In this document: in pieces, positions 13,950-63,437 of the stretch
Position numbering within the stretch: the first letter of the stretch is position 1
Layout of the letters: each line of letters opens with the position of its first letter
Source: a virus
Direction: 5' to 3' (one strand)
DNA length: 64,000 nt
IMG/VR virus record: IMGVR_UViG_3300006925_000008
Span: 33,369 to 97,368 of that record
Notes under the pieces: generated by a model
Databases searched by the model: none
The model's input: only the letters and a program-made list of their open reading frames with translations
What the model was told of the DNA's origin: nothing
Translations under genes and position numbers: made by a program

Positions 13950-13959
13950 AATAATCAAC

Positions 13960-42221: not shown

Positions 42222-42524
42222 TCAGCGGCATCCGGGTAACTCTTTTGCACAGTTACCATTCTTAGGACCATCAGGGGCATAATATGGATGTTCCGGTGTT
42301 TTCTGTCCACCACATGCTTCACATGTATCGTCATCAGGGTTGAAATCAGACTTGACAATACTCCACCCGATTGTAAACGCTTTACTAATTGTTTCAACCG
42401 TAGCATTGCCGGGTGCATGGTCAGCACACGGGCCACAGCATCTCATCTCCGTTTCTTCATTTTGAACGGTATGCGTTGCCTCACCCGTGCAATCCTTATC
42501 TTTTCCCGATTCACACCTAGCCAT
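42222..42524 (-). CDS. Two-module Cys/His zinc-binding protein with internal AFTIGWSIVKS motif
   Basis: ATG at 42524 behind GGTGA; two Cys clusters separated by the motif. Confidence 0.6.
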   Translation of the reverse strand: MARCESGKDKDCTGEATHTVQNEETEMRCCGPCADHAPGNATVETISKAFTIGWSIVKSDFNPDDDTCEACGGQKTPEHPYYAPDGPKNGNCAKELPGCR

Positions 42525-42529
42525 TTTAA

Positions 42530-42721
42530 TCACCAAATTGAAATCTCCCACGCTGTATCAAAAGCCTTCTTCAAATCCGCTGGATGTTTACCTTCTTTTT
42601 TGAGGTCTTTGTAGCAAGCACACATAGGTTCTTTCTGTGAACATTTCATATTGCCCTTCTTCATGCAAGCGCATGGTTTACTCTTTGTTGCACCACAGCA
42701 ACAACCATCATTATCAGCCAT
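42530..42721 (-). CDS. Metallothionein-like Cys-rich peptide with C-terminal AFDTAW motif
   Basis: CCC, CAC, C, CAC in the first 37 aa. Confidence 0.6.
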   Translation of the reverse strand: MADNDGCCCGATKSKPCACMKKGNMKCSQKEPMCACYKDLKKEGKHPADLKKAFDTAWEISIW

Positions 42722-43920: not shown

Positions 43921-43930
43921 TTAATTCACC

Positions 43931-44572: not shown

Positions 44573-44576
44573 TGTT

Positions 44577-45533: not shown

Positions 45534-45574
45534 ATACCTGCCAGTCCTGACAGGCTGATAAGGGTGGCGGTAAT

Positions 45575-46306: not shown

Positions 46307-46319
46307 ATTGAGGTCCCCC

Positions 46320-46541: not shown

Positions 46542-46557
46542 GAATAGACCTCCTTAA

Positions 46558-47257: not shown

Positions 47258-47755
47258 ATGCCGAACCTGATCGAAGCCGTAAATGCAATGAGGTCATACA
47301 ATAATACAATTGAAGCAACCTCTCTCGACACTTCAGCATTAGCGTCATGGATTGACAGAAACGCAAACACGAATGTGCAACGCCAACAACAATTCTCAAC
47401 AGATGCGGCGATAGGAGTCTTAAGTTACTACGGGCATCCTCTATTCACCAGTGCAAATCTAAACCAGTCTCAAATGGACTGGACGGCTTTAATGGCATCC
47501 GCAGAACAGATTCTTCAACAAGAAGTAACTTGGAGTAACCAACAGGTGTCAATAGCAAACTTGACTATGTTCGCTCGTTTGTTTGGTTCTGATGTTAGTT
47601 GGCTAAACACTTGGGCCAATGGACGAATGGCTCCGAATACAAGCATCGAGTTTATTGTAAACGAATTGATTTCCGATTTTAGAACCTGTCAAGGTCAAAG
47701 CGGTGCGGGTTCGATCAACCACCAGTCTCATACGCCGGTTTCACCAATACCCTGA
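47258..47755 (+). CDS. Hypothetical protein, opposite strand
   Basis: Only long ORF in the gap; ATG at 47258; converges on the GP88-like gene. Confidence 0.6.
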   Translation: MPNLIEAVNAMRSYNNTIEATSLDTSALASWIDRNANTNVQRQQQFSTDAAIGVLSYYGHPLFTSANLNQSQMDWTALMASAEQILQQEVTWSNQQVSIANLTMFARLFGSDVSWLNTWANGRMAPNTSIEFIVNELISDFRTCQGQSGAGSINHQSHTPVSPIP

Positions 47756-49020
47756 AGATTGAATTGCGAGAGGTCAACCCCATCCATTGGGACCTGAACC
47801 TGCTGTCTTTCAGCGAGTCTCATGTTTGTGTTTTGAACCGCTTGGTCGTGAGAAGCCTGTTCTAATGGGTTTCTGCTCATCATAGCGGCTTTAGTCGTAT
47901 GCCCTGAATAGTCAATATGTTTGATGCTTGGGTCCCAGCAGGCATTGCACCCGTGCGACTCGCACTTACCCATGTCGTCTTTTTGGCCTGCCGATGGACA
48001 CACCCACACGCTGTCAGGTGCTAGATGTGACGCATTCATTGTCGATACGCTGACTTGAGGGTGTTGAGACATGTATTCCTCGATTAGACCCTGCGCCAAT
48101 TGATTACCTTTGGGTGTGGACATACGCAATGCGAGGTTTTTAGGAATATCCGCATTAGCCACGCCGCCATTGGCATCCATCCAAGTCCCAACATGGTTGT
48201 ATTCACGAGTCGGCAACCAAAACTGCTTTTCAGGATGCGCTCGTGCTATGTCCATTAACATGGACAAATGTTCGGGGGACTGTAAATCTCCTGCGGAAAA
48301 CAGCCGGATGTGGTCTCCCGCTTGATGGTTTTCGATTTGATATGACAAAGCGGCGGCATAGAGCATAGGGTTGGCCATGCCTAGCATGTTCCTCCATTGA
48401 ATACGCTGGGGGTGTTCTTGATTTTGTCTGCTGTAATCAGCATAACAGCCATTGCACGCTGAACCCTCCACATTTCTCAATTTTCCTCCTACATTACAAG
48501 CCGCTGTTGGGAGGTCTTCAGCACCGCCCCACATTTTACCGGGGGATGAAAGCCCCCCGTATCCATCGTATGAGTTTGAATTGACTCCTTTTATCCCGCT
48601 TTTCTTAATCCATTCAAGTATTTGCCTCGGAGTCTGTGCGGGCATACCTGTTTGATTTTGATAAATGTCTTTCATGACATGACCGCCCTGACCGTTCCTA
48701 AATTGAACGCCTGCGCCTGTGATCGGATAAGTTGCTAGTCCCGCTCTTGATTCGTCTATTGCTTGTTGCCATGTCGGGTGTATTGGCAGTTTTGTTGCCT
48801 CAATCATCGAACCGGCTCCACCGGGACCCTCGTAGCCTCTCGACGCACGGAATACATCGAGACCTGTTCCCAACTGCGGCAATAACTCATTCACCTCTTT
48901 GATACTGCGGAGGAGGATGTCCTTCACTAGAGAGTCATGCATAGGACCTCCGCATGAATGACAAATCAGGTGATGGGTGTCATCATGGAGGATTGCATTT
49001 TCAGGGTTGCCTCGACTCAT
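47728..49020 (-). CDS. GP88-like Cys-rich (radical-SAM-related) protein with N-terminal extension
   Basis: C...CxxCYA, IRLFSAGDL, FWLPTRE, LRMS and CP...C...CxxCW; ATGA overlap at 49017-49020. Confidence 0.65.
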   Translation of the reverse strand: MSRGNPENAILHDDTHHLICHSCGGPMHDSLVKDILLRSIKEVNELLPQLGTGLDVFRASRGYEGPGGAGSMIEATKLPIHPTWQQAIDESRAGLATYPITGAGVQFRNGQGGHVMKDIYQNQTGMPAQTPRQILEWIKKSGIKGVNSNSYDGYGGLSSPGKMWGGAEDLPTAACNVGGKLRNVEGSACNGCYADYSRQNQEHPQRIQWRNMLGMANPMLYAAALSYQIENHQAGDHIRLFSAGDLQSPEHLSMLMDIARAHPEKQFWLPTREYNHVGTWMDANGGVANADIPKNLALRMSTPKGNQLAQGLIEEYMSQHPQVSVSTMNASHLAPDSVWVCPSAGQKDDMGKCESHGCNACWDPSIKHIDYSGHTTKAAMMSRNPLEQASHDQAVQNTNMRLAERQQVQVPMDGVDLSQFNLQGIGETGV

Positions 49021-51350
49021 GGTGTCCAACTCCCCCTTGAGTTTTTCCAACTGGCTATCTCATCGGCTCCCATATCAGACAACCATGGCATGTTCGCATA
49101 TGCAAACATTTCGGGAACCTTCTTTGCATCCGACTTTACATTGCCCTCCCACCTATCGGCGGTGGCAAACTCCCCACCCTCGGACTCATCAACAAACTTG
49201 GTGTTTTCAGGATGAGGCGTGTCATGCCATGTCACGGGTATGCCCCGCTTGGCCAATGTTTGAAACAATTGACCAATGATGTCTGAATCCTCACTACGCC
49301 ATCCAGTGTGCTGGCCTTCTTGACCTCGATAAGGAGGGTCCAAAGCAACTGCGAAGTTTTCCGGCATTCGCTTTTGGTTGATCAGGTCTTTTACACCCAT
49401 ATTCAGAATGTTTGAATTGCGAAGGGTTCTATGATAATCGCCAAAGTCTGTCTCATCCTCGGTGATTCCGTAAGGCATTGTTCCACCCGCATAATATGCT
49501 GGTTGCCTTAGACCACCTTTACCCATCCATTCAGGTTTAGCCGCATCTGATTTAGCCCATTCAGGTCTAACCTTGCCAAAGTTGCCCTTTGCATCCGAAG
49601 TCCATATGTCCTCATCATCTTCACTCAATCCAAAGCGGTCCCGGTTTATTTTCCCCGAATTGATGATTGACTCCACTGATGAACCAAAGCCTCGCCCCGC
49701 ACTTGCTCTTGGTCTAGGTCCGGGCATATTCATGTGGCCACCTTTATTGTAGCGGAATGATTGCGAATAGGCGTTCTTAGAGAGGAACCATGTGAGCCTC
49801 AATAACTCAATCTCTTCATCAGGAGTAAGTCCGGCTACTTTTCGTTTGTCAGTCAAACGATTGAAACGGTCTTGTTGCTTGTAATAGTTGATTCCATAGA
49901 AGACACCTTCTAGGTCAGGCATACCAAATTGGTCAATCTCGTCTTGTGTGACGGGTCCACCGACTGGCATTTCAGGCGAACCCTCCTTGCCTTTGTATGA
50001 TGAAAAGGTCGGTGTTTCGCCAACACGAGTCAAAACCATATCCTGCAAAGCCTTTGCATCAAAGATTTCAGGGCGGTATTTGACAGCATTATGCAGGCTT
50101 GCCATCTCACGGCTTAAATCCGAACCTATGTGTGAGGGGGGTTGTAAACCATATGTGATTCCGCCACCACCCATGAATGGTTCAACAAGAGTTGTCCCCT
50201 CCTCCATAAGAGGGGCATACGCTGATTGATATTGCCTCCTGTAAGGTTTTTTCAAATCAGCCATATTCTTCACGCCCATGATCGATGCTAAGGGTTTCAA
50301 TGGTGCAGGCCTGTCCCATTTGACAACAGACCACGCATCTTCAAATATCGCTGATGATTCATCTGAACGGATAATGTCTCCCGACAATGCCTGCTCATAC
50401 ACCCTGCGTCCTTGGGGGGTCAAATCGTCAGGGTTGAAGTAAAGCCCATAACGACCAGTAGCCAAACCTTGGTTAATGCCATGCTTGCCTTCTGTTGCTG
50501 ACATAGTTGGAGGGACAGGAACACCTGCTTTTCCTTCATGCTCAACATATCCACTAGCATAGCCCGCACTAGGAATCATCAAAAGAGGGTCCACTGAACC
50601 TGTGACCTGATAATCTCTAGCCTCACGCCATGGCCTGCCTTCGTCCTCTCGATATTCACGCCTGCCTTCTTTGTCTTGGGAGAATACACTGTAACCTAAC
50701 CGAGGCATTTCATACCCCTCTTCATTGAATAAAGCAATGTCTCCTTGATATGTGCGGCCCACATTGAAACCTAAATCGCCTAGGTTTTTTCGCCCCTGCA
50801 TTAAATCAAGCATCAACTGCTGATCAAGATTACCTTGAGTCCACAAATGCCGAGACCTAACGCCGCTAAATGGTTTTTTGAACCTATCTGAATGAGACCC
50901 CTGCATTGGTCTTCCTTCTGAATCTCTATGCATTGTCCCGTGAAATGCCTGCCTTTGCTGTCCTTCATCAACGGCAATACGAGGTTTCTGAAGTGGCATT
51001 GCATTGGCAACGGCTACGACTGACGGAGAGCCAGTGCCAAACTTGCGTTCAAGGCTCAACATTGCTGAAGACTTGTCATTGACGGGGTTGGGGGAATGAA
51101 ACTTTGATTGAGAGATGTTTCTGAACATCCTTGCGTCGGCTGGTTCGCCTAGAGGGTCTTTTGACTTGAATTGCTTAGGCGGTTGCATAAACCGTGTGTC
51201 ATCAATGTTTTTTTGGTCAGCCACTGGATACATTGTCAAGCCAGTTTGACTAACCACTCCTTGGCCCGGTCTGCCTCTTTTGTTACCCGGCCATTCTTTC
51301 AATATACTGATGCCCGCTGTGGCGGCTTGGGTATGGCTGTCGCCGGACAT
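49017..51350 (-). CDS. Fusion protein with C-terminal Dam-like N6-adenine DNA methyltransferase domain
   Basis: Motif I LVEPFMGGGG followed by GSD, motif IV ALDPPY; the domain begins right after the internal AIFEDAWSVVK motif. Confidence 0.75.
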   Translation of the reverse strand: MSGDSHTQAATAGISILKEWPGNKRGRPGQGVVSQTGLTMYPVADQKNIDDTRFMQPPKQFKSKDPLGEPADARMFRNISQSKFHSPNPVNDKSSAMLSLERKFGTGSPSVVAVANAMPLQKPRIAVDEGQQRQAFHGTMHRDSEGRPMQGSHSDRFKKPFSGVRSRHLWTQGNLDQQLMLDLMQGRKNLGDLGFNVGRTYQGDIALFNEEGYEMPRLGYSVFSQDKEGRREYREDEGRPWREARDYQVTGSVDPLLMIPSAGYASGYVEHEGKAGVPVPPTMSATEGKHGINQGLATGRYGLYFNPDDLTPQGRRVYEQALSGDIIRSDESSAIFEDAWSVVKWDRPAPLKPLASIMGVKNMADLKKPYRRQYQSAYAPLMEEGTTLVEPFMGGGGITYGLQPPSHIGSDLSREMASLHNAVKYRPEIFDAKALQDMVLTRVGETPTFSSYKGKEGSPEMPVGGPVTQDEIDQFGMPDLEGVFYGINYYKQQDRFNRLTDKRKVAGLTPDEEIELLRLTWFLSKNAYSQSFRYNKGGHMNMPGPRPRASAGRGFGSSVESIINSGKINRDRFGLSEDDEDIWTSDAKGNFGKVRPEWAKSDAAKPEWMGKGGLRQPAYYAGGTMPYGITEDETDFGDYHRTLRNSNILNMGVKDLINQKRMPENFAVALDPPYRGQEGQHTGWRSEDSDIIGQLFQTLAKRGIPVTWHDTPHPENTKFVDESEGGEFATADRWEGNVKSDAKKVPEMFAYANMPWLSDMGADEIASWKNSRGSWTP

Positions 51351-52346: not shown

Positions 52347-52736
52347 TCAAATCTCACGAGCGATATAGCCTCTTGAATGAATCTCTTTTGGCTTCGTCCG
52401 TTCAACATCGGTCAATGGATACCCAACCGATTTGCCTTCTTTATCCTCTTTTGACCCCTTTGGGACTCTATGTTGTTTTCTATCCCGGTCAAACTCCTGT
52501 GAATTGTTGTATTGCTTTGGCTTTTCAATATCCATAAAGCCGACTAATTCAGCGGGACCTTTGCCCGTCCTGATAATACCGACCTCCTCACCCACATACG
52601 GGTCGAGACTATTGGTCCTTCTAGTTTCAATGGTCTTCTCACCATCAAGTATCATTTCAGTATATGGGGCTTCACTATCATTGATGTTAATCCCCATCTG
52701 TTTAACCAATGCCCACGCTCGGTCAAAGGCCGTCAT
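52347..52736 (-). CDS. Leader-tagged ASCH (PUA-like) domain protein
   Basis: MTAFDRAWALVK leader; PYTEMILDGEKTIETR matches the ASCH GxKxxExR motif. Confidence 0.8.
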   Translation of the reverse strand: MTAFDRAWALVKQMGININDSEAPYTEMILDGEKTIETRRTNSLDPYVGEEVGIIRTGKGPAELVGFMDIEKPKQYNNSQEFDRDRKQHRVPKGSKEDKEGKSVGYPLTDVERTKPKEIHSRGYIAREI

Positions 52737-52760
52737 GGTAATGGGACGCACCGATCATAC

Positions 52761-53180
52761 TTAGGCGATCTGTTTGGTTATAGCCCAAGCATCAACAAAT
52801 GCTTTGTCAGATGATGCAGTGAAGTAATCGGCCAAACGACTCCCGCCTTTATTCCAGTCAGGGTCTTCAGGGTCAATTTCTAAACCGTGAGTATCCTCTT
52901 CAACATCTCTCGGATTAAATCTAGGTTGGGGGTTGGAGGGGTTCATACCCTGCGGGTCCGTGGGGTCCGGCTTGTATCCCCTGAATGGGTTAGGCTTTTC
53001 ATTTTCCCTGCCGGTGTATGCTCGTGGGATAAAACCTGATTGCCTTCTCCCCTCTTTTTCATAATCCTCTAGGGGTATTCCTGTTGTTCGTGGGTCGGTG
53101 TCGTCCCAGTCTTCCTCCTCGTCATCAGCAGGAGCCATTGCCGACTTTAGAACATTCCATGCCCGATCAAAGGCCGACAT
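52761..53180 (-). CDS. Leader-tagged acidic hypothetical protein with a second motif copy at the C-terminus
   Basis: MSAFDRAWNVLK...AFVDAWAITK; TGATG overlap. Confidence 0.7.
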   Translation of the reverse strand: MSAFDRAWNVLKSAMAPADDEEEDWDDTDPRTTGIPLEDYEKEGRRQSGFIPRAYTGRENEKPNPFRGYKPDPTDPQGMNPSNPQPRFNPRDVEEDTHGLEIDPEDPDWNKGGSRLADYFTASSDKAFVDAWAITKQIA

Positions 53181-53665
53181 CAACAATTCCACCGTTTTAA
53201 TGAAGCACCCTTTGGGGTAAGTTTGCCGCCTTTACTGGTTGGTCCCTTGACACCGCCCATTCTTGCACAGAACGATTTACGGCGTTTTGCTTTTTTAGAG
53301 CCGGGTTTGAGGGATGATGGCTTTTCAGTTACAGGTGGCTTCAGATTCGCCCCTTCTTCTCTTTTTGCTTTGGCTCGGCCTTTAGCATTTAATCCACCCT
53401 TTTTGCTGTGTTTGTTTGGATTGTAACCATGAAATGGCTTTGACTTAGCCTTTGTTAAAAGAGATGCAACAAGCACATTGCATGTGCCGCAGTCACAAGC
53501 CGACTTCTTTGTCGATGATGGGACGCAGTTTGGGACTTTACGACCTCCCTTTTCTTTCATACCAACCTGCTTGTATCCGTCCCAGCAAGGGTCTTCCTTC
53601 TCCTCTTTGTATGTCTTTTCCTCGTTTTTCAACAGGGACCATCCATTAGCAAAAGCAGATGACAT
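53180..53665 (-). CDS. Leader-tagged basic protein with small phage modules
   Basis: MSSAFANGWSLLK; PCWDGYKQVGMK...VPNCVP and GGLNAKGRA...RRKSFCARM...RWNC modules, recalled from marine phage proteins. Confidence 0.7.
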   Translation of the reverse strand: MSSAFANGWSLLKNEEKTYKEEKEDPCWDGYKQVGMKEKGGRKVPNCVPSSTKKSACDCGTCNVLVASLLTKAKSKPFHGYNPNKHSKKGGLNAKGRAKAKREEGANLKPPVTEKPSSLKPGSKKAKRRKSFCARMGGVKGPTSKGGKLTPKGASLKRWNC

Positions 53666-53667
53666 AA

Positions 53668-54312
53668 TCATTCCTCGTTTTTAGAGTCCTTTTTATCGCT
53701 TGGTTTCTTAAACTTTGAAGAACCCGGCATAGTGTGAGTATTCTTTCTTGCACGGTCAATTAGACCCTGCCCTAGTTTAGGTGGCTTTGCGGGGTTCTCC
53801 ATGTCAGGAGATTTACCTTTTCTGTCGCCGCCAGCGGTTCGTCTTTTTTCCTCACTACGCTTCTGTTCGTAGTTTTTAGGAGACATTTCACGCATTGGAC
53901 CTTCGCCTTGTCCACCATACGGCTCGCCCGTATCACCTTTGCCGGGGTAGTCTTTTGGATTCGCCATCATTCTTTTTTGGCGTTCCGGGTCCATTTGGCC
54001 CATTGCATCAGGAGGAGTAATGTCTCCCCTATCAAACATTCTTGTTCTTGGAGGCGGTGAGTCGTATTCAGAAGGTGGTCCCGTTGGGTTCATTCCTCCC
54101 ATTGGGTTTTGATGCATTGGAGGGATTTTTTGGCCCTCTTCAACTCTCATGTTGATCAGCGCATCTAGTAAACGGGGGTTCATTCGACGCATGGCATCAG
54201 CATGGGAGCCTTGCCCCAGTGGACCATTGATGGTATTACCATCCATTGGGTCATCACCATACATATTTGGCATTTTAAGCACGCTCCATGCACGCTCAAA
54301 GGAATCGGACAT
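53668..54312 (-). CDS. Leader-tagged Pro/Gly/Met-rich disordered protein
   Basis: MSDSFERAWSVLK leader. Confidence 0.7.
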   Translation of the reverse strand: MSDSFERAWSVLKMPNMYGDDPMDGNTINGPLGQGSHADAMRRMNPRLLDALINMRVEEGQKIPPMHQNPMGGMNPTGPPSEYDSPPPRTRMFDRGDITPPDAMGQMDPERQKRMMANPKDYPGKGDTGEPYGGQGEGPMREMSPKNYEQKRSEEKRRTAGGDRKGKSPDMENPAKPPKLGQGLIDRARKNTHTMPGSSKFKKPSDKKDSKNEE

Positions 54313-54335
54313 GGTTTTGCGAGGGTGTTTAATAC

Positions 54336-54506
54336 CTAAACACTTTCTATAAGACCGGCTTCTTTTATCTCATCCTGCGTCATTTCACGCATCCGCCGCT
54401 GGCATTTACTGCAATTGGGCCTTTTGGCTATTGAATACAACCGATGGATTGATTTTGTGTCAACATTGTAACATCCCCTGCGACATTCGCACCATCTATA
54501 CGGCAT
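54336..54506 (-). CDS. 56-aa zinc-ribbon protein, below ORF-track cutoff
   Basis: Hand translation MPYRWCECRRGC...PNCSKCQRRM...GLIESV*; fills the gap on the coding strand. Confidence 0.6.
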   Translation of the reverse strand: MPYRWCECRRGCYNVDTKSIHRLYSIAKRPNCSKCQRRMREMTQDEIKEAGLIESV

Positions 54507-54561
54507 AGATTTCAAGAGATGGGCTGTTGGTTTTTGAATGTTTACTTCGGGTCAAAGGGTT

Positions 54562-55275
54562 TTATTGTCCCCTCTCTCTCAAACGCCTTACAAAGTCATG
54601 TGGTTTTGAACCACCAATCAACATATCATTTGTTGTGATTTTATCCCAAAGTGGTTGTTCACCGTATAACTCTTCAAGGGCTTCATACAATTCCCCTGAA
54701 TGCACTTCATCGCCTCGTAAATCGGGATAAATAGATTCCCAGTGGCCACGCCCTCCTTTTCGGGGCGGGAGGAATATATTATCCCATGCCTCATCCTCAT
54801 CACCATCATCGGAGTAATGTTCTTCCTCAAAGTCATCCATTTCTTCGTCATACAAATCCGAGTCAATGATATTTTGAATGATTTGGGCTATGTGTTCATC
54901 CGGCAATTTTTTTGAATGAGGCGGGACAACCCCTTCTTGATCATGAAAAGCCACACGGCCTCTTTCAATTGCGCTTGAAATACCATTACCCATGTATTCT
55001 TCATCCCTCGGAACATCAATGTATTCATCCTTTGGCGCAGTTGCCATGTGTAATTCGGGATAATGCACATTTGCATCAACAAAAGGCGAACCCTCGTAAT
55101 CGTTGCGTGGACCAAACATTGCGTAAGCCAAAGCCTTTGATTTGTGCGGTGTCCAATATCCTGTGTCTTCGTCACCAGTCCTTCGACCTTGGTATAAATA
55201 ATCAGTCTGCAAACCGCCGTCCTCGACGACAAAAGGCATTTTGAGAAGACTCCAAGCCTGATCGAATGCGGTCAT
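54562..55275 (-). CDS. Leader-tagged protein, possible ADP-ribosyltransferase-like fold
   Basis: MTAFDQAWSLLK; LYQG...GYWTPHKSKALAYA; paralog of 57378..58127. Confidence 0.5.
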   Translation of the reverse strand: MTAFDQAWSLLKMPFVVEDGGLQTDYLYQGRRTGDEDTGYWTPHKSKALAYAMFGPRNDYEGSPFVDANVHYPELHMATAPKDEYIDVPRDEEYMGNGISSAIERGRVAFHDQEGVVPPHSKKLPDEHIAQIIQNIIDSDLYDEEMDDFEEEHYSDDGDEDEAWDNIFLPPRKGGRGHWESIYPDLRGDEVHSGELYEALEELYGEQPLWDKITTNDMLIGGSKPHDFVRRLRERGQ

Positions 55276-55782
55276 TCAATAATCACCTACTTCTGTGTGC
55301 CATCTCATTTTTTCCCGCCAATCACGGTCATTTGGGTCTTGGAGAATATGCGCCAACGACTCCCAACCATATTTCAAATCTCGCTTCCTGTTTTGTAATT
55401 TCCAACTAATCACATCATCTAAGGTAAGAGCATGACCGTATTCATGGTTGTAATTTTTAATAAAATCCCTGATAAATCGTTCCTCAAAAAGTGGATGGCT
55501 CGCATCCTTTGATGCCGCAAGCATTTCCTCAAAGCCTTTCATGTCTTCTATTTTGTCAGCATCATCTATCATATTAAAACTGGTTCCCATCGCAATGTTA
55601 GGGAGGTGCAAAAGAATGTTGCCTTCATTTGGTTGGTCGGAGATAAACAGGCCTTCAGGTATGGTCGCCCTATTGCTTTCTTCACCCGTAATGTCTTGAT
55701 AGCGTTTATGCCAATTGCTTTCGCTTGTTGTCAAATCAGGAGATATTTTGATTAAACCCCATGCGGTGTCGAAGGCGGTCAT
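55276..55782 (-). CDS. Leader-tagged HExxH zinc metallopeptidase-like protein
   Basis: MTAFDTAWGLIK; NHEYGH with downstream ESLA. Confidence 0.65.
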   Translation of the reverse strand: MTAFDTAWGLIKISPDLTTSESNWHKRYQDITGEESNRATIPEGLFISDQPNEGNILLHLPNIAMGTSFNMIDDADKIEDMKGFEEMLAASKDASHPLFEERFIRDFIKNYNHEYGHALTLDDVISWKLQNRKRDLKYGWESLAHILQDPNDRDWREKMRWHTEVGDY

Positions 55783-56552
55783 TCATACCCCTCCAACCAT
55801 TTTGGTTTACCGTCAATAGTGAGGGTGTTTGGGTTGTCAGAATAAGGCTCAAGGAGCCGCATCAAATCATTAAATCTCTTAAATCTGCCTTCATCTCTAT
55901 CGTTAAAGAAGTCCAATACCTTTGAAGTCGGATGTTGAATGCCGTAAGGGTTCAATGCTTCCGTTTGATATTTCTCCGGGTTATCAGCCTGAAGAGACCT
56001 ATCAAACTCTATTCCAATACCATCAAGGTCAAAATTGCGTAAGTGTCCCGCACTGTCGGTCCCATAATTTCCTTTATGCCTGTCTTGAATAAGATGTGCA
56101 AGCGCACGATCAGCCACCTCAAATTGTTGATTGACATCCATGTTGCCGCCCCCTCGCATTACATTGGCGTTCAATTTAGGCTGAATTGTATGCTCCCATT
56201 CGGAACCCGGCATTTCAGGGGCTAAAGGATAACCAAGTTGCTCAAGGAATTGAAGAGTTTCTGCTTCATCAGGTTTCATGCGACGGGTCTTGAAACTATC
56301 ACGATAATAATCGTCATCGTGCGGGACCTTAACAACAAAGTCTTCGCTCCATGGGTGTTCAAACACATGAGTTTTTGACCCGCTATTTAGAAAACCCTCT
56401 ATGTCCTCTTTATATTCGTCATCATCAGTGTCCCACTGTTCAATGAAAGGCATTTCATCCTCTTCAACAGGCCCTATGTCTCTAACTTCATCACGCCAAT
56501 TTGGTGTGTAATTTTTGAGAAGGCTCCAAGCCTGATCGAATGCGTCAACCAA
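55779..56552 (-). CDS. Leader-tagged kinase-like protein (PI3K/HipA-type catalytic loop)
   Basis: TTG start behind GGAGG gives MVDAFDQAWSLLK; LNSGSKTHVF, FVVKVP, DRHKGN, NFDLDG. Confidence 0.7.
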   Translation of the reverse strand: MVDAFDQAWSLLKNYTPNWRDEVRDIGPVEEDEMPFIEQWDTDDDEYKEDIEGFLNSGSKTHVFEHPWSEDFVVKVPHDDDYYRDSFKTRRMKPDEAETLQFLEQLGYPLAPEMPGSEWEHTIQPKLNANVMRGGGNMDVNQQFEVADRALAHLIQDRHKGNYGTDSAGHLRNFDLDGIGIEFDRSLQADNPEKYQTEALNPYGIQHPTSKVLDFFNDRDEGRFKRFNDLMRLLEPYSDNPNTLTIDGKPKWLEGYE

Positions 56553-57381
56553 AGAACCGCCTCCTTCGTAATTCATCCATGATACCCTGATGCTCCATGC
56601 CTTCGACAAGCATTGCACCATACTCTTGTTGAGTATTGGGGGGATTGCTTTCTGAATAATACATTGGCTCATATCCCTCGTCTTCAAACTCCATCTCTCG
56701 GTTTTCCTTTAGTGGGCTGAATACCGCCTGATGTCCTTCTTCATGAGCAATGCTGTCAATGATTCTTCTGATCGTGTCCTCTTCATTCATTCCATGATAC
56801 CATGGGTGAGATAAATTAACACCAGTGTAATAATCACGCTCTTTAGAGTCATAATGCGGGTCTAGTCTCATAGAATCCCACCTTCCGGCTGACCCGTCCG
56901 GGTCATCGGTCCCATAATAGAAGTTTGACTTGAGCAAAGTCCAAGCGGTGTCGAAGGCGGTCATAGGTTCACCTGCTAATTTTTCTTGCCAATCATCACT
57001 ATGGGCTTCATCAATATGAAAATCGCCTATTTCGTCTATTTTTGATTCGGGATTGGGGATGAAAATGCGAGCGTGTTTTGGGTCTTTTGGATTCTTTCTT
57101 TTTCTTGATAGGTTTTGTAAATCCTCTTGATAATCAGCCATAGCCTGTTTAGCACCGACATATTCCCCCTTTTCATCGGCTAAACGGTTTGTGCCAATGT
57201 GTGTCCTCTCCATCGATTGTGGTTTGTCGCTATTCGGCATTAAAACCTCAATCGGTTCAGCAACATGAAACCAACGCTGAAATCTATTGAAATCACCATC
57301 TCCCTGATCGTATGCTTCTTGAAGTGTTTTTGCGGTGGCATCCTCTTCGCCTTTGCGCCAAGCGGTGTCAAAGTCGGTCAT
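56545..57381 (-). CDS. Fusion of two leader-tagged modules; C-terminal HExxH peptidase-like domain
   Basis: MTDFDTAWRK start; in-frame internal MTAFDTAWTLLK at 56964 with its own GGTGA; IAHEEGH...EYGA. Confidence 0.7.
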   Translation of the reverse strand: MTDFDTAWRKGEEDATAKTLQEAYDQGDGDFNRFQRWFHVAEPIEVLMPNSDKPQSMERTHIGTNRLADEKGEYVGAKQAMADYQEDLQNLSRKRKNPKDPKHARIFIPNPESKIDEIGDFHIDEAHSDDWQEKLAGEPMTAFDTAWTLLKSNFYYGTDDPDGSAGRWDSMRLDPHYDSKERDYYTGVNLSHPWYHGMNEEDTIRRIIDSIAHEEGHQAVFSPLKENREMEFEDEGYEPMYYSESNPPNTQQEYGAMLVEGMEHQGIMDELRRRRFFG

Positions 57382-58127
57382 ATCCAATCATCCTCCGAAT
57401 ATCCAGCCTCAATAGCGGCCTCTCGTTGCCAATCCTCTAAATCATTCCATTCGCCAAGCATATCAGCCATGCTATCATCATAACCGAGCGTTTCTATAAA
57501 ATCGTCATATTCAGCCGTTCTAAACACATCTCCATCCATCTCATAACTCGGTGGTTTTGGGTTGAACCTCTCAAGTGATTCATTATTCCTGTAAGCAATC
57601 AAGCGGCTTAGAGCGTCTTTTGCGTGTTGCCCTCTTTGTTCACCGCTAAACATTTCGCCTGTTGTTCCACCCAAAGACCCAACTCCTCCAACCCTGTATC
57701 GGCCCTCATCAATGTATTCTTGAAGTAATTCAATAACTCGGTCATGCGATAACCGATCACCCATGTTATCATCATCCATAACACCAATACCGGGGCTAAA
57801 CGGGTCTTCTTGCATTATACCGACTTCGGGTTCTTGAAAATCTCTTGGGTCAATAATGCTGATACTTGGTATTGTTCTCCGCATTGGCGGGGTGGTTTTA
57901 CCTTCTGTATCTCTTCTCCCTCCCTTATCAGCATAAGGAACGGCTGAACCATACAAAGCATAATGCAAAGCAATATCAGGGTCGTTTGAATAATAGCGTG
58001 GGTCATCTCTAAAATCGCCACCGCTATACAACATCTCATCATCACCAATCTGTCTTATTCGGCCACGGTCCGAATAAACATCAATAGGGGCTTTCACCAA
58101 AGACCAAGCGGTATCGAAGGCGGTCAT
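57378..58127 (-). CDS. Leader-tagged protein, possible ADP-ribosyltransferase-like fold
   Basis: MTAFDTAWSLVK; LYSG...YYSNDPDIALHYA. Confidence 0.5.
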   Translation of the reverse strand: MTAFDTAWSLVKAPIDVYSDRGRIRQIGDDEMLYSGGDFRDDPRYYSNDPDIALHYALYGSAVPYADKGGRRDTEGKTTPPMRRTIPSISIIDPRDFQEPEVGIMQEDPFSPGIGVMDDDNMGDRLSHDRVIELLQEYIDEGRYRVGGVGSLGGTTGEMFSGEQRGQHAKDALSRLIAYRNNESLERFNPKPPSYEMDGDVFRTAEYDDFIETLGYDDSMADMLGEWNDLEDWQREAAIEAGYSEDDWI

Positions 58128-58681
58128 GGTGGTGTTCTCCTAACCATGTATTCTCCTTTGTCATTATCCATTCTTTTTCCTTGATGAGAATACGGTGCTA
58201 TCCCCGCATCCATGTATTGAAACGCTTGGTCGGCTATCCGGTCAAGGGATTGCAGGTCAAATATCCCCGCATCGTTTAATGCGTTGATTAACGAAGCCCT
58301 CTCCAATTCCCCCATAAGCACTTCTGTTCCCATGTCGGACGGGCGTTTGAATGCGGGTATTTCATCGCTTCCATAGCGAAAGGACTTATCCTCTATACCG
58401 TCTTTCATATTTTCACCAAAGTCCCCCATCTCATAATCAATCACAGGGGGATTATCCATGCGCTCACCCCTCCTTCGTTGTAATTCGTGAGCGACACTCT
58501 CCATAAATTGTCCATCGGGAACATCTTGGTTATTCCCCGCATCAAAAGCCCTAAAATCGGGAATGCGAGAACCTCTAAATGCTAAGTTAGCGTGTGCGTC
58601 TGTAAATTGTGGGCGGTCCAAAGGTGTCGGCAACCGCATATCGGTCTTAAGTAAATCCCAAGCGGTGTCAAATGCGGTCAT
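58124..58681 (-). CDS. Leader-tagged hypothetical protein
   Basis: MTAFDTAWDLLK leader. Confidence 0.7.
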   Translation of the reverse strand: MTAFDTAWDLLKTDMRLPTPLDRPQFTDAHANLAFRGSRIPDFRAFDAGNNQDVPDGQFMESVAHELQRRRGERMDNPPVIDYEMGDFGENMKDGIEDKSFRYGSDEIPAFKRPSDMGTEVLMGELERASLINALNDAGIFDLQSLDRIADQAFQYMDAGIAPYSHQGKRMDNDKGEYMVRRTPP

Positions 58682-59751
58682 CAGTCATCGCCCCCGTAAA
58701 TCAAGCGATGTAGTCTTTCTTTATCCTTTTTTACCTTTTCAGGTGATCGATAAAAGTCGGGGTTTTCTTCATAAAACTTACCCATGCTGTGAGATACTTC
58801 TCTTTGCATGTCATGATGGTCATCAAGGGAGTTACTGCTATACTCGGCAACTTTCTGTTTCCAGTCTGAATCCTCATTATGAGGGTCTTCATAAATAGAC
58901 GCTAAAGACTCCTGCATCAGTATCCGGCGCATAATGCCGCTTATGTCATCATCAACACTGCCACCTCTCCTTTGGTCGCCAACATAATGCTCTCCCCCTC
59001 TTTCTGCATATTTGTTGGTCCATTCGTGTTCTTCTTCAGGTTGAGTTGTATGACCTAATTCATGGTTAATGATGCTGATAATCCTGTCCATAATGGGAAT
59101 GTCCTCATTATCTCTTAGGTATGACTCTCTTTGAGAGTTATAAGCGTCTTGACTTCGCCTATGCCTCCTCTCGGCAATCTTGTTGTTTGCTCTTAAACGG
59201 TCTTGTTCTTTAGATTGCTCTCGCCAGTTATCGGAGTCATAATCAATACTAGGCATGTCCATCCAATGAGTATATCCCGGTGTTCTTGTCAAAGAGGGGG
59301 GACTTGGATTGTTTTTGCTATATTCCTCCTCCATGTCAAATCGAACATTTTGGGTGATGTTGGGAAGGCTGATCAACATTCGGCCATCACCAAAAAGTGG
59401 TTTGTTATAGTCATTTGATGTCTCACCTCGCCAATTAGTTTTCTGTTCGTAGCCTTCGTCACTATTGGCTTGACCGCTCGGAGTAAAACGACCATACTCA
59501 TCTAAGTAGCGTTCTCGATGTGTTTGATTCTCTTCACCGCCATGTGCGTCTTCACGGTCAGGTTTATCCCAATGAGGGACTTCATCCCAGCCACCATCCT
59601 TATCATACTTGTTTGGGTTTTCTTCGGGGGTATCCTTTAAGCGGTTATACAACCACATCCGCTTGTAAGCAATTTCTTGAGGGGTTTCATTACCCTCAAT
59701 AAAATCAAAATCAGCCTTAAGGAAAAGCCATACTTCATCGAATGCGGTCAA
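58681..59751 (-). CDS. Leader-tagged HExxH zinc metallopeptidase-like protein
   Basis: TTG start behind GGTGA gives MTAFDEVWLFLK; IINHELGH...ESLA. Confidence 0.65.
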   Translation of the reverse strand: MTAFDEVWLFLKADFDFIEGNETPQEIAYKRMWLYNRLKDTPEENPNKYDKDGGWDEVPHWDKPDREDAHGGEENQTHRERYLDEYGRFTPSGQANSDEGYEQKTNWRGETSNDYNKPLFGDGRMLISLPNITQNVRFDMEEEYSKNNPSPPSLTRTPGYTHWMDMPSIDYDSDNWREQSKEQDRLRANNKIAERRHRRSQDAYNSQRESYLRDNEDIPIMDRIISIINHELGHTTQPEEEHEWTNKYAERGGEHYVGDQRRGGSVDDDISGIMRRILMQESLASIYEDPHNEDSDWKQKVAEYSSNSLDDHHDMQREVSHSMGKFYEENPDFYRSPEKVKKDKERLHRLIYGGDD

Positions 59752-60622
59752 TGACTTCACCGCCTTTATTCTTGATCGCTCTTACTGCACGGCGCATTTT
59801 CATGCCACGAGGCTTATTTTTTATCCAATTAGCCAGTCGCACAGCATCTTTCAGGTCCTTTGACTTAACACCACAGTCGATGTCTCTAGCCTCGCACCAA
59901 TCCACGAATACTTCAGTCGCTAGGTTTGCACCTGAACCGGGAATGAATGGGCAACCACCTAAGCCGCCAATGCTAGTATCAAACTCGGTTATCCCTAAAT
60001 CAACAGCAATATCGACATTTTGATACAAATAAGGGCCATGATGCAGGTGTAATGCGATGTTTTCAGTAATTGCACTGGTAATGTCGTATGCTTTCTTGAT
60101 CATCACCGGAGTGGCAATACCATCGGTGTCGCATAGCACTACGCCGTTGCCGAATTGCATTCCTATTTCGACAGCATTCTTCAAGTCTTCATCGGGACAA
60201 TCGAATGCCATTGAGATATAGACACGCACTTTGCTAGGTTCTATACCCTCCAATGCCAATTTGTATTCTTCAACGATAGAATCTAAGGTCCTGCCATAGT
60301 TTGACATGTTGAATACTTCATTGGGTGAGTAAAATATGTTGAATAAGTCAGCACCTACTAACTTAGCACGGTCAACACCACGCTTATTCGGCACTAAAAC
60401 CGACATATTAGCATCTAAACCGGCAACTGCGGCATATACGCTGTCGCTTTCAGCCATATTTGGGACTAATTTGGGATGAACAAATGCACCGACTTCTATG
60501 TCAGTAAGTCCTGACTTAGCCAACGCCTCCACTAATTCCACCTTTTCATCAAATGAAATGCTATGAGGAAGTGCTTGAAGGCCATCTCTAGGCCCAACTT
60601 CAAAGATGGAGACTTTCTTCAT
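59735..60622 (-). CDS. Hydroxymethylglutaryl-CoA lyase (DRE-TIM metallolyase)
   Basis: IFEVGPRDGLQ, IEVGAFVHPK.VP, LVPNKRG, LCDTDG, LHLH, GGLGGCPF.PG..NLATE. Confidence 0.88.
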   Translation of the reverse strand: MKKVSIFEVGPRDGLQALPHSISFDEKVELVEALAKSGLTDIEVGAFVHPKLVPNMAESDSVYAAVAGLDANMSVLVPNKRGVDRAKLVGADLFNIFYSPNEVFNMSNYGRTLDSIVEEYKLALEGIEPSKVRVYISMAFDCPDEDLKNAVEIGMQFGNGVVLCDTDGIATPVMIKKAYDITSAITENIALHLHHGPYLYQNVDIAVDLGITEFDTSIGGLGGCPFIPGSGANLATEVFVDWCEARDIDCGVKSKDLKDAVRLANWIKNKPRGMKMRRAVRAIKNKGGEVIDRIR

Positions 60623-61794
60623 ACCCATCCACCTTCAGTATCACGGAAGAAGTCTTCTCCAAGCAATTGGGCAATGCGAGAGTCGGGGTTCTTTTCACTG
60701 AAATCCATCAGGCGTTTCAATGGGACAGCGTTTTCATGAAAGAACCCGTGGACACCCGACGAACCCATTGGGGTGACATATGTCTTCAGGTCGGAGATCG
60801 GATTGCGTTCTTTGCCTTCATACCTTAATTCCAGCGGATATGTATCATGTAATTCAGGGTTGGTCTTATCGCCCCTTCTCCTGTAAATCTGTTCAAACTT
60901 GTATGGATGTGGGCTTGGCGCACCCCACTTGGTCCCTTTCAACTGCCATTTACTTGGTTCCTCATAATAACTGCCGCCCATCACGGGGCGTTGATAAATC
61001 ATATCTCCCTCTTGGTTCTTCCTTCGGATTACATGGTCTGTGTTCCACTTCCCGCCATCTCTCCAAGGCTTTCTGTTAATTGCCATCCTCCGGCCATATC
61101 CGCCCTCGGTCATTTGCCGACCAAGTTTATTCCACATGCCATAGGCTTCAGGAGAATATGAGTCATCGCCTGCCCGACCATAGGTTTGAGCCATGGTCCC
61201 CAGCATATGAGAGCCAATTCCTTGGCCACCCATTCCGGGCAATACGCTCATCTGTGCTACATTGCCATCCAGCGTTGGTGCGCCGTGTCCGACAGTCATC
61301 CATTCTTTAGAATCGGTATCCGCCTCATGGCGTATTGCCGCTTCAAGGACTTCGGGGGCTAATGCCTGTTGCCACGGAGTCCATGCCACCGGCCTCCCGC
61401 TTCCATGTCTAGCAATACGGCGTTGCTCAAGGTGTTGAGGAAACTCGGCTAGACCTAATGGACTTGAATAGCGGTCATGTTTCATTTCACGAAGGGTTGA
61501 TTCAACAGTATCTCGTCCACTTCGACTGTCCTGATAGGGTTCGTCCTCCCATTCGGCATATACATCGGGCCATTGGTCGTATCTCCTATTGCGAAGTTTA
61601 CCTAAACGGTCAATGTTCTCCTCCAAAATTGGGATAACCTTGCCAACAGGCATTTTATACTCGTGCTGAAGCACGCCAGCATCTGAATAACCCATGCTCA
61701 TGTTGGGTCTGATGAGTTGTATCAGGCTTTCAGGGGTCTGTTGAAGAATCGGGTCAGCCTTAATGAGGTCCCATAACTGGTCGAAAGTTATCAT
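60619..61794 (-). CDS. Leader-tagged protein with GNAT acetyltransferase-like domain
   Basis: MITFDQLWDLIK; MSVLPGMGGQGIGSHML (motif A) and SPEAYGMWNKLG (motif B-like). Confidence 0.65.
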   Translation of the reverse strand: MITFDQLWDLIKADPILQQTPESLIQLIRPNMSMGYSDAGVLQHEYKMPVGKVIPILEENIDRLGKLRNRRYDQWPDVYAEWEDEPYQDSRSGRDTVESTLREMKHDRYSSPLGLAEFPQHLEQRRIARHGSGRPVAWTPWQQALAPEVLEAAIRHEADTDSKEWMTVGHGAPTLDGNVAQMSVLPGMGGQGIGSHMLGTMAQTYGRAGDDSYSPEAYGMWNKLGRQMTEGGYGRRMAINRKPWRDGGKWNTDHVIRRKNQEGDMIYQRPVMGGSYYEEPSKWQLKGTKWGAPSPHPYKFEQIYRRRGDKTNPELHDTYPLELRYEGKERNPISDLKTYVTPMGSSGVHGFFHENAVPLKRLMDFSEKNPDSRIAQLLGEDFFRDTEGGWV

Positions 61795-63437
61795 AGGCCC
61801 CGGTTCTCCATAAATTGACTAATATCAAAGTCTTTCCCCATAAGTTTGGCCGCATTAGCAACCGCACGGAGTCCCATTGCTTTTCGACTATCAGGGACTA
61901 CGCCAGCCTGATCGTTCACTGAACCAACCATCCGCTGGTCTTTGAGATGATGTCCAAGGTGGCTTATCTCACTTTTAGCATCATTTTGATAACTGTTGTA
62001 TTTGGGTGACAATCGCCTGTAATCTCTAAACAATGCGTCTTCAGACCCCGGTTCCATAGGAATAGAGTCATAATCAGGGTAATAGTCATCAGGGTCGATG
62101 TATTCATCCCACTTGTCCTCATACCAGCGGTTCCCTTCAGCCCCTGTTCTTACCCGGTATCCTCCGCCATATACCTCACTTCTTGGTTCAGCAAAAGCGT
62201 ATTCGTCGGAAAAGTCTGACAGTTTAGGAGGGAATGGGATGCCGGTCAACCTAGCGGTGTGAATCTCATCACCCATTGACATGCTTTCAGGAGACAGGTT
62301 GGTTCCGGGGTGAGCGGCATAATCCGCCCATGCATCCTCGTGCCTGCGATGAACACGGTTCCTTGGACCGTCTTGTCTTCGTCCAAAGGTCTTATTTGCA
62401 TTATTCAGCCCCGTTTCTTGACCTAAATGGGCCGCATACTCGTGCGCCCTGAAGAAGTTATCATCAACAAAGGCCTGCAATGCCGCCCGCTGTTCAGGGT
62501 TTGGCTTGTCATCATTTACTAAGCCATAGTCATCCTTCGCTTTCTGATCAACAGCCGCTTGATAGTGAGCCATCAATTCATCATTAACAGCGGCGTGCAT
62601 TGCTTCGTGGTGTAATGTTTGCTCAACACCCTCCTCTAATCGGTTCGATTCCTCTAAACCACGACCATAGACTCCGTAATTCATCCACCACGCTGGTGAT
62701 GACAGGTCAACGCCATAGAATCCTTTTTGCTGTTGAGGCAATACCTCACGCTTAGGCAACTGCTCCATATAGCGTTCAGGGGTTCCATCCTCGCCGTATC
62801 TCCAACGAGGCATTTCTGTTCGTGAATAGTTTTCAGCACGCCCTGCTTTGGTTCGCAGGTCATGGTTTTTACCGACTGGGACAAAATGCCCCAATGTATC
62901 TCCACCCATTGCACCCTGCATCATTCGCTTGCCATTATCCCTGACAGGCGTTCCAAAGAAGAAGTCCTTAGTGAGCATGTCCCACATGAAATCGAATGGG
63001 TCATCAAATGAAGTCGTGAAGTCTAAATCGGACCAAGGAGAGTCAGGCGGCATGTTCTCACCGCTGATCGGAATCCCATGGTCATCTTCTCTCGGACTCC
63101 ATTTGAAACCGCATTCAGTGCAATGGTCCCAGTTGTCAATGGAGGGACAGGGACATTCACCGCCTAGATAGGTCGGCATCAATGGCTTGTCAGTCATGGC
63201 CTCCTCTTCAGCAATAGCCCTAGCCTCTTCAATAGTTTCAGCATGACCCATTGCTATTGCCTCATCACCTAATTCATACAACTCATTATGGTATTCCATT
63301 GCATCCTCCGGCCATTCCTCACCGTGATTCTGTTCACCACCCATACGCCTGTCCAAAAACTGCTTTGGGTCATCGTTTTCAGCGTCAGAATCTTTCAAAA
63401 AAAGAAAACCAGCAGAAAATGCATTACCGCCGGTCAT
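61791..63437 (-). CDS. Multi-module protein: acidic/zinc-ribbon module, internal motif, HExxH peptidase-like module
   Basis: Start moved to MTGGNAFSAGFLFLK; internal FDFMWDMLTK; LHHEAMH...HEYAAH. Confidence 0.65.
   Translation of the reverse strand: MTGGNAFSAGFLFLKDSDAENDDPKQFLDRRMGGEQNHGEEWPEDAMEYHNELYELGDEAIAMGHAETIEEARAIAEEEAMTDKPLMPTYLGGECPCPSIDNWDHCTECGFKWSPREDDHGIPISGENMPPDSPWSDLDFTTSFDDPFDFMWDMLTKDFFFGTPVRDNGKRMMQGAMGGDTLGHFVPVGKNHDLRTKAGRAENYSRTEMPRWRYGEDGTPERYMEQLPKREVLPQQQKGFYGVDLSSPAWWMNYGVYGRGLEESNRLEEGVEQTLHHEAMHAAVNDELMAHYQAAVDQKAKDDYGLVNDDKPNPEQRAALQAFVDDNFFRAHEYAAHLGQETGLNNANKTFGRRQDGPRNRVHRRHEDAWADYAAHPGTNLSPESMSMGDEIHTARLTGIPFPPKLSDFSDEYAFAEPRSEVYGGGYRVRTGAEGNRWYEDKWDEYIDPDDYYPDYDSIPMEPGSEDALFRDYRRLSPKYNSYQNDAKSEISHLGHHLKDQRMVGSVNDQAGVVPDSRKAMGLRAVANAAKLMGKDFDISQFMENRGL

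Follow-up and report, generated by a model that had tools for sequence, protein, structure and literature searches.

A Short Shared Peptide on Exchangeable Proteins of a Magrovirus-Type Archaeal Virus, a Candidate Head-Targeting and Processing Signal

The viral contig IMGVR_UViG_3300006925_000008 of the IMG/VR database is 97,368 bp long, and its right 64 kb (positions 33,369 to 97,368, a stretch of 64,000 nucleotides numbered here from its first letter and referred to as the window) carries every long open reading frame (ORF) on the minus strand. Within the window, 15 consecutive genes at 52347-63437 (g01 to g15) form an array in which 13 members open with a common leader of 12 residues, M-T-A-F-D-x-A-W-x-[LIV]-[LVM]-K. 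The bodies which follow this leader are mutually dissimilar by BLASTP, with the paralogues g06 and g10 as the sole exception. The leader, here called the tag, was recognized in a preliminary description made from the letters alone, and all of the leader peptides quoted there are present in these genes. Here we describe the array, the distribution of the tag among related viruses, and its resemblance to conserved boundaries in the head proteins of the same virus, which suggests that the tag is an address and processing signal for the virus head.

Tight coupling and Shine-Dalgarno-like sequences characterize the genes of the array. When the strict pattern F-[DE]-x-A-W-x-h-h-K (where h is a hydrophobic residue) was back-translated, it matched the window 10 times compared with 0.00 expected from 100 shuffles, and 10 of the 10 matches lie on the minus strand and in frame. 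Neither the other frames nor the other 33 kb of the genome, which constitutes the replication half, contained copies of the tag. In addition to the leaders, internal copies occur at five places in the window and a C-terminal copy at one (Table 1). The preliminary description stated that similarity among the array proteins stops at the terminal Lys of the tag; this is mostly correct, except that [MA]-P follows the Lys in 14 of the 144 body clusters described below. At the tags and at the head-protein sites alike, the Lys is in most cases followed by A, E, G, M, S, N or D.

A search of IMG/VR with the back-translated tag pattern identified 56 loci, many with several matches. Related loci span just 1-15 kb each. 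When these loci and the window were scanned at the protein level, with F, W and K fixed and the remaining consensus positions free, 415 copies were counted (357 N-terminal, 50 internal and 8 C-terminal), at a density of up to 20 copies per 13-kb locus and with the consensus M-T-A-F-[DE]-x-A-W-x-[LIV]-[LVM]-K. The 341 bodies of at least 40 residues group into 144 BLAST clusters, including 92 singletons, and a Pfam search of 140 cluster representatives returned 8 families only. The same pattern was applied to one genome for each of 185,579 prokaryotic species (596 Gb) and matched on a single contig, which is 106 kb long, comes from a Poseidoniales single-cell genome and holds at least 20 tagged ORFs within 16 kb. 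Because this was the only cellular match, the tag is, as judged from these scans, specific to this virus lineage, and the tag array on the single-cell contig links the lineage with its host. A virus-restricted motif with variable cargo was the outcome expected in the preliminary description, and the single cellular contig together with the 144 body clusters agrees with it. A tblastn search of GenBank phage records with g10 gave no match.

Synonymous codons are mixed at each conserved position of the tag (F, 156 TTT and 103 TTC; K, 149 AAA and 112 AAG; Ala and Leu, 4-6 codons), and thus the peptide rather than the DNA is under selection. Residues 3-11 are helical in both AlphaFold models that include the tag. 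F, A, W and L-L would then lie on one face, in agreement with the amphipathic helix proposed earlier. The spacing F-x3-W-x2-L is that of the p53 peptide which inserts into MDM2, an analogy of function with a docking helix that carries no homology. Literature searches on magroviruses, on capsid targeting sequence combined with archaeal, and on the literal string MTAFD found no description of such a tag system, in agreement with the earlier statement that none was known for archaeal viruses. Relative to this literature, the tag itself, the code in which it ends, its scale and its setting in an archaeal virus are new.

The virus is a magrovirus-type tailed virus of marine Poseidoniales archaea. 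Among the proteins encoded in the window are the terminase large subunit, the portal, an S78-family prohead protease whose fused C-terminal half is scaffold-like, and a major capsid protein (MCP) of the HK97 type; the left 33 kb encodes, on the plus strand, a thermosome subunit (2.8e-154) and a PD-(D/E)XK nuclease. Among GenBank phage records, the only relatives of the MCP are those of the haloarchaeal siphoviruses HCTV-1, HVTV-1 and HCTV-5 (~31% identity) and one methanogen virus. The defining traits of magroviruses are a genome of ~100 kb, a halovirus-like head module, a chaperonin gene carried by the virus and an association with Marine Group II (MGII)/Poseidoniales (PMC5434244), and their MCP clade has been described (PMC8651126). 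An HMG-CoA-lyase-like gene is a reported magrovirus auxiliary metabolic gene (AMG) (PMC10160649), and a 6-kb LamG-like gene, present in this genome, is known from these viruses too (PMC11706807). The genome examined here is ~97 kb long, has a halovirus-nearest MCP, encodes a thermosome, and has a tag array, as does the Poseidoniales single-cell contig. The assignment to an archaeal virus made in the preliminary description therefore holds, on the basis of the MCP relatives, the thermosome, the genome size and the other genes reported from magroviruses. The lineage is large, with an MCP relative in 223 IMG/VR loci and >2,700 proteins that match the protease-scaffold. The 80 MCP matches listed of the 223 loci cover an identity range of 75-100%, and in the tag-bearing contigs that were checked the MCP was always at least 75% identical to that of the window.

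The tag ends in hydrophobic-hydrophobic-Lys (h-h-K), and the same motif is present at boundaries in the MCP, at four sites in the protease-scaffold and at the start of the portal tail (a slash marks each boundary below). In the MCP, the boundary TDLLK37/ADSP is invariant in the 80 relatives listed of 223. BLAST homology with the MCP of HVTV-1 begins exactly at this Lys, with K37 corresponding to K102 ('KAD'), and the preceding 37 and 101 residues of the two proteins are unrelated, a pattern that is consistent with a removable pro-region. The protease-scaffold belongs to Pfam S78 with a score above the gathering threshold. In an alignment of 39 such proteins with 66-98% identity (A3), the protease leader ends in G[WF]SAxGSDF[IL]LK26/, which in this virus reads GFSAVGSDFILK26/A. 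The junction between protease and scaffold, YTILK181/M, is invariant in A3, as are VIK304 and V.K322 within an otherwise variable Gly-rich linker, and QK399/S is conserved. The MCP and protease leaders have W..G[ST]D-h-h-K in common. The likeness of the tag ending to DLLK-A in the capsid protein and FILK-A in the protease, noted previously, was thus found at sites which are both present and conserved. Further head-module proteins have similar short leaders (MNDLILK/A, MNLNELILK/A and FDVLLLK/A), and 21 of the 43 non-array proteins of the morphogenesis strand have an h-h-K among their first 40 residues, compared with 7 of 28 on the replication strand and ~19% expected. These comparisons suggest that h-h-K is probably the site where the head protease cuts.

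The portal provides a connection between the head-protein boundaries and the tag. Near its N-terminus the protein has a zinc-ribbon-like insertion, C-x2-C...C-x2-C, at residues ~88-110 (30900-31250). At the other end, the h-h-K/R junction in front of the basic tail is kept in most of 80 portal relatives. In four viruses (loci L031, L039, L222 and L224) the portal instead ends after the linker, and the tag opens the gene or genes that come next. The tagged product in L031 and L039 is a 106-residue protein, MTAFD[RQ]AWSLVK/RGLLDDIHG..., that is homologous to the portal tails (E = 3e-8 pairwise). In the alignment, K12-R13 of the tag is invariant and superposed on the Lys-Arg of the portal junction. 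Judged by this homology, one module is either tethered to the portal or made separately with a tag. In tailed phages, the C-terminus of the portal faces the capsid interior. This interchange is the strongest support here for a common destination of tagged proteins and the portal tail and for the Lys as the mark of a processing joint.

Taken with the sharing of h-h-K among the MCP, protease-scaffold and portal junction, the interchange leads us to favor, with moderate confidence, the view that the tag is a portable head-targeting and protease-processing signal of the magrovirus lineage, comparable to the capsid targeting sequence (CTS) of phage T4. The tagged enzymes are probably loaded into the virus head, as suggested by the sequence comparisons; their docking and cleavage, their place in virions and their injection into host cells are steps that we infer. 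In such a scheme, the helix face formed by F, A, W and L-L would dock the attached protein inside the assembling prohead, with the scaffold, the inner capsid surface and the protease as candidate receptors. The h-h-K end would then be cut by the S78 prohead protease, which would also trim the MCP, itself, the scaffold and the portal tail at this motif, and internal tag copies would mark the joints at which multi-module proteins are cut apart. The rapidly exchanged cargo (ADP-ribosyltransferase-fold, HExxH and kinase-like proteins, DNA methyltransferases and basic peptides) would be retained in the virion and delivered into the cell along with the DNA. An address label tied to head and protease had been proposed in the preliminary description, and the comparative evidence favors it; the accompanying picture of a purely N-terminal leader that is clipped off is too narrow, because the tag also occurs internally and at C-termini.

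Several observations weigh against a head-targeting role. The array occupies the end of the leftward block that is remote from the head genes (~30 kb away) and adjoins the divergent replication module, and it may therefore be expressed early. The cargo is mostly acidic (median isoelectric point (pI) 4.9), some tagged proteins are large, up to 548 residues, and 13-20 protein species per genome are much to fit beside ~100 kb of DNA. Conserved C-terminal copies of the tag cannot act as clipped N-terminal leaders. The h-h-K motif is short, and its N-terminal enrichment over the control strand is modest (21/43 versus 7/28). The motif TGAGCCTTGAAA, which is found 5' of plus-strand replication genes, was not seen upstream of the array, a result that does not settle the timing of expression. 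Prediction of a complex from A3, an MCP alignment (A4) and residues 1-40 of the g10 family gave a score of 0.00 in both runs, with controls not run, and was counted neither way.

Some of these observations would be accommodated if the tag were a short helical motif which docks proteins on a hub other than the capsid, with the terminal Lys as a part of the binding surface and no cutting site. Candidate hubs include a host protein and the thermosome, membrane cluster or replication compartment of the virus. The position independence of the tag (N-terminal, internal and C-terminal), its predicted amphipathic helix with p53-like spacing, the acidic character of the cargo, as is usual for cytoplasmic proteins, and the presence of a virus-encoded thermosome all fit this explanation, as does the location of the array, first in its direction of transcription and beside the replication genes, a frequent site of host-takeover genes. 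Binding to such a hub would leave unexplained the constant h-h-K end and its conservation at the junctions of the MCP, protease, scaffold and portal, the exchange of a portal-fused module for a tagged free protein aligned at K-R, and the placement of tags before each module of multi-module proteins, and we consider it unlikely.

An enzyme encoded beside the array, either the GP88 protein or an HExxH protein, might instead modify or cut the tag independently of head assembly, as with the leaders of ribosomally synthesized and post-translationally modified peptides. The i, i+4 placement of W and K is reminiscent of Lys-Trp cross-linked peptides; the array is bordered by two genes of the GP88 family, and GP88 is found in 16 loci and HExxH proteins in 20, in loci that, at 1-15 kb, are too short for an absence to count. 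However, the GP88 and HExxH proteins are usually tagged themselves and hence resemble cargo, GP88 is widespread in phages outside the lineage, Pfam, the PDB and the ESM Atlas gave no radical-SAM or other enzyme signature for it, and the motif shared with the MCP, protease and portal would have no explanation. Such a leader therefore seems to us quite improbable. A role of the tag at the level of DNA or mRNA, either in recombination, where it would be a handle for exchanging cassettes, or as a context for translation initiation, would agree with the tight coupling of genes with Shine-Dalgarno-like sequences and with blocks of homology between relatives that stop at gene starts or within tags. 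Extension of BLAST matches into the tag of the next gene is to be expected, however, because all tags are alike, and residues that stay fixed while synonymous codons vary freely, as well as in-frame internal and C-terminal copies, make a nucleic acid role extremely improbable.

The head-targeting interpretation can be compared with known packaging systems. In T4, the internal proteins IPI-III and Alt carry the CTS, and their loci are polymorphic with the tag alone conserved (PMC3012670). Both systems have a short N-terminal peptide on unrelated, fast-evolving proteins. In T4 this peptide ends in the motif by which the protease also processes the capsid protein, and in the magrovirus in a putative protease motif that is conserved in the MCP. 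The feature that characterizes the T4 type, one short terminal peptide on unrelated proteins, is found here on 13 of 15 genes and, across loci, in 357 N-terminal copies over 144 clusters. The T4 CTS is cut at L/I-x-E and is removed by the prohead protease gp21. The two peptides have no sequence similarity, the T4 signal ending in L/I-x-E and the magrovirus tag in h-h-K. The magrovirus protease belongs to the S78 family and is fused to a scaffold, and the virus itself is archaeal, with a head of the HK97 type. Since tag, cut motif and protease family all differ, the system falls outside the T4 family. Magroviruses also have far more cargo genes (13 to at least 20 per genome) and carry internal and C-terminal tags. 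The T4 CTS is experimentally established, whereas the magrovirus system is known here from sequence comparison.

The classes of cargo match phage proteins that are known to be packaged. T4 cargo includes the ADP-ribosyltransferase Alt and anti-restriction proteins, and proteins with an ADP-ribosyltransferase (ART) fold are among the tagged cargo here. In phage P1, an N-terminal signal loads DarB, an anti-restriction protein that contains a DNA methyltransferase, into the head (PMC9024508), and DNA methyltransferases of the D12 and C5 classes are tagged in magroviruses. The P1 signal differs in that it comprises the first 30 residues, has no shared short motif and is known for one protein; P1 depends on ordered Dar assembly and is without an array of tagged genes. 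In giant phages of the SPN3US/phiKZ group, the prohead protease is reported to process many proteins of the head interior at a single consensus motif (PMC7411985, PMC10052503). The propeptides of these proteins are long and dissimilar, with another cut motif and no known portable 12-residue tag. Outside the viruses, a further parallel to the magrovirus tag is offered by encapsulins, in which short cargo-loading peptides address diverse enzymes into an HK97-fold shell. In contrast to the tag, these peptides are usually C-terminal, uncleaved and of other sequence, and encapsulins have no portal, protease or DNA. A short C-terminal segment of the HK97 protease gp4 reportedly suffices for entry into the prohead, in work by Duda, Oh and Hendrix in 2013 (cited in PMC9024508). 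This likewise represents an S78-type system in which a terminal segment carries a protein into the prohead, but the gp4 signal is C-terminal and serves the protease alone rather than a family of cargo genes.

The cargo assignments of the preliminary description were partly upheld. An ART-like family is supported by fold; HExxH peptidases, kinase and ASCH stand as motif-level readings; GNAT is found in relatives only; and Pfam confirms none of these in the array. The ART assignment derives from the largest cargo family (cluster 0, 30 members, none of them in the window), whose model has a predicted local distance difference test score (pLDDT) of 83.5. Foldseek ranked Tpt1/KptA, CC0527, cholera toxin A1, DarT and Arr highest among its fold matches (probability up to 0.98, E 0.04), its profile matches Tpt1 at E = 1.6e-4, and its conserved motifs, YHGT ... 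F-x5-P-x2-A-x2-YA ... VLEI, follow an H-Y-E-type order. Based on the predicted structure, cluster 0 is an ART-fold family. Cluster 3 contains the window genes g06 and g10 and lacks the His of the first ART motif; a low-confidence model of g10 (pLDDT 64) matched KptA (Z 5.5), Arr (Z 5.1) and Tpt1 (Z 4.7), weak fold matches that hint at a distant sister family of the ART cargo. The HExxH...E.GA proteins, represented in the window by g07, the second module of g09 (g09b), g12 and g15, are recurrent in the 20 loci noted above, and some of those in relatives are fused to a GNAT-like R-G-x-G module. A kinase-like profile of the g08 family (A8) gave only chance-level matches in the PDB, and kinase therefore remains a motif-level reading for g08. 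No match to g01 was found in Pfam or by sequence in the PDB, and a PHROGs search matched families of unknown function only. Against the generally acidic background, g03 and the portal tail belong to a strongly basic minority.

The module at the end of g03 is DUF6321 (Pfam 1.4e-16), which in relatives always follows a Cys knuckle and a tag-like h-h-K/A. This basic module is also C-terminal in >2,800 marine metagenome proteins (287-1,600 residues; P0127-P0246), often together with DUF5872. DUF6321 may be a widespread basic module that is released by cleavage and possibly binds DNA. The GP88 family, untagged in this virus but tagged in relatives, includes 11 N-tagged, 3 internally tagged and 8 untagged members. 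A C-x5-C-x3-C cluster and a GGGD motif mark the GP88 proteins, which occur widely among phages. Neither Pfam (E <= 10) nor the PDB nor the ESM Atlas, where only GP88 clusters were returned, supported a radical-SAM-like reading of the family; the GP88-like protein had no PDB sequence match. The HMGL-like enzyme g13, embedded in the array of the window, is untagged in 17 of the 17 loci which hold it.

Table 1. Tagged genes, head-protein genes and other tag-like features of the window (positions in the window; a slash marks an h-h-K boundary)
Feature	Position	Strand	Evidence and relatives
g01: tag MTAFDRAWALVK + 117-aa body, ASCH-like by motif only	52347..52736	minus	orthologue in L044
g02: N-terminal tag, acidic low-complexity body, C-terminal tag AFVDAWAITK + 3 aa (52773-52802)	52761..53180	minus	
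g03: tag, Cys knuckle, LLTK/A junction (53447-53464), very basic DUF6321 module (pI 10.1)	53180..53671	minus	
g04: tag MSDSFERAWSVLK + Pro/Gly/Met-rich body	53668..54312	minus	start 91% conserved in L046
g05: 59-aa Cys-rich ORF, no tag	54336..54515	minus	
g06: tag + cluster-3 body (distantly ART-like; g10 paralogue)	54562..55275	minus	
g07: tag + HExxH...E.GA zincin-like body	55276..55782	minus	
g08: tag (TTG start) + kinase-like K...E...D-x4-N...D pattern	55779..56552	minus	
g09: truncated tag MTDFDTAWRK + 140-aa module, then in-frame full tag (56929-56964) + HExxH module	56545..57387	minus	
g10: tag + cluster-3 body, weak ART-fold matches	57378..58127	minus	96% nucleotide identity in L046
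g11: tag + 173-aa body, no family named	58124..58681	minus	other cassettes in nearest relative
g12: tag (TTG start) + HExxH body	58681..59751	minus	
g13: HMGL-like (HMG-CoA-lyase-type) enzyme, no tag	59735..60628	minus	Pfam PF00682 2.3e-20
g14: tag MITFDQLWDLIK + 379-aa body, no family named	60619..61794	minus	
g15: degenerate leader AFSAGFLFLK (63393-63422); internal tag FDFMWDMLTK (62967-62996) before HExxH module	61791..63437	minus	
HK97-fold MCP, 37-aa pro-region ending ...NAWAYSGTDLLK37/ADSP	21584..22753	minus	Pfam SU10_MCP
S78 prohead protease fused to scaffold	22794..24122	minus	PF04586, 41.1 bits vs cut-off 21, residues 25-178
Portal: core, Gln/Gly linker, PEMLFK/R junction (29916-29936), ~95-aa basic tail	29634..31475	minus	PF04860
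Terminase large subunit	32879-34294	minus	
1096-aa acidic head-module protein: FDVLLLK/A (residues 7-14), tag-like AFDLVWDDLEK (residues 25-35; internal copy 37477-37509)	34291..37581	minus	
777-aa protein: N-terminal half, internal tag (50319-50348), D12-class N6-adenine DNA methyltransferase	49017..51350	minus	PF02086
GP88-family Cys-rich protein, untagged here	47728..49050	minus	PF17338; second copy 51500-52309
Two small Cys-rich ORFs: one ends KAFDTAWE...; other with AFTIGWSIVK between two Cys clusters (42351-42380)	42222..42721	minus	
Two adjacent tail-module genes, common 21-25-aa leader ending ALDSAWS(LM or QFL)K	12899..13991	minus	

Proteins with more than one tag are chains of units, each composed of a tag and a module, with the tag directly preceding the domain module. 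The product of L018:2541-3623 has the order tag-domain-tag-ART, that of L027:7408-9459 has three tags, and g09 of the window has two. The internal full tag of g09 has its own ATG and an AGGTGA Shine-Dalgarno-like sequence, and the upstream module of g09 heads different tagged modules in L005 and L048. The degenerate leader of g15 resembles the leader of the protease itself. C-terminal tag copies, such as that of g02, recur in L009, L043, L056 and L044, and a D12 methyltransferase homologous to that of the window (L024:4014-5660) has a tag near its N-terminus. Comparison with the nearest relative, whose MCP is 96% identical, illustrates the turnover of cassettes: g04, g10, g12 and g13 are kept at 85-96% nucleotide identity, one cassette of 525 residues takes the place of g06-g09, other genes take that of g11, and the breaks fall at gene starts.

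Magroviruses are abundant worldwide. Their hosts have yet to be cultured, and a known function can be given to only a minority of their genes. One recognizable tag groups hundreds of these genes (13 to at least 20 per genome) into a testable class that is tied to assembly of the head. Should the tag prove to be an address for the capsid, virion effector delivery as in T4 and P1 would extend to archaeal viruses with HK97-type heads and S78 proteases, the tagged genes would provide a catalogue of candidate host-takeover and anti-defense enzymes against Poseidoniales, and the short peptide could serve as a tool for packaging proteins into HK97-type shells. A broader proposal, about which we are somewhat doubtful, is a lineage-wide programmable delivery system of the archaeal viruses that dominate the ocean, in which the helical address loads >140 exchangeable families (ADP-ribosyltransferases, zinc peptidases, kinase-like enzymes, DNA methyltransferases and basic DNA-binding peptides among these) that are cut free at h-h-K and injected as a first-strike arsenal for takeover and anti-defense. 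If true, archaeal viruses would gain their first known system for delivering effectors from the virion, and a large part of the magrovirus 'dark matter' would be united by one function.

Other features of the genome were noted in the course of the analysis. Over the whole genome (1-97368) the palindromes ACGT, AGCT, CGCG and GTAC are absent, compared with 162, 263, 177 and 178 expected; CCWGG is also absent (expected ~126), GATC and GCGC are depleted, and 48 of the 64 palindromic hexamers are missing. This loss of palindromes implies strong restriction pressure from host defenses. The Ala codon GCC, which would create CCTGG, is avoided before TGG within the tag (1/239). Upstream of the array at the contig end (63501-64000, read on the minus strand), ~300 nucleotides are non-coding, GC-richer and rich in short repeats (GGCTGGGC, CAATG and GCATTGA), followed by three long T tracts; possible roles of this stretch are those of an origin, packaging site or terminal region. 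A conserved motif, TGAGCCTTGA[AT]A, lies ~30 nucleotides 5' of the ATG of replication-module genes including the thermosome (L057:944, 2121, 9697 and 13522; plus strand) and looks like a promoter for leaderless transcripts; it was not seen ahead of the array. Within the window, a conserved cluster at 43648-47043 encodes small membrane proteins and Gln/Met/Gly-rich proteins, together with a small GTPase-like protein at 45575-46306 that has weak matches to Arf and EF-Tu; the cluster is found in 13-16 related loci and is never tagged.

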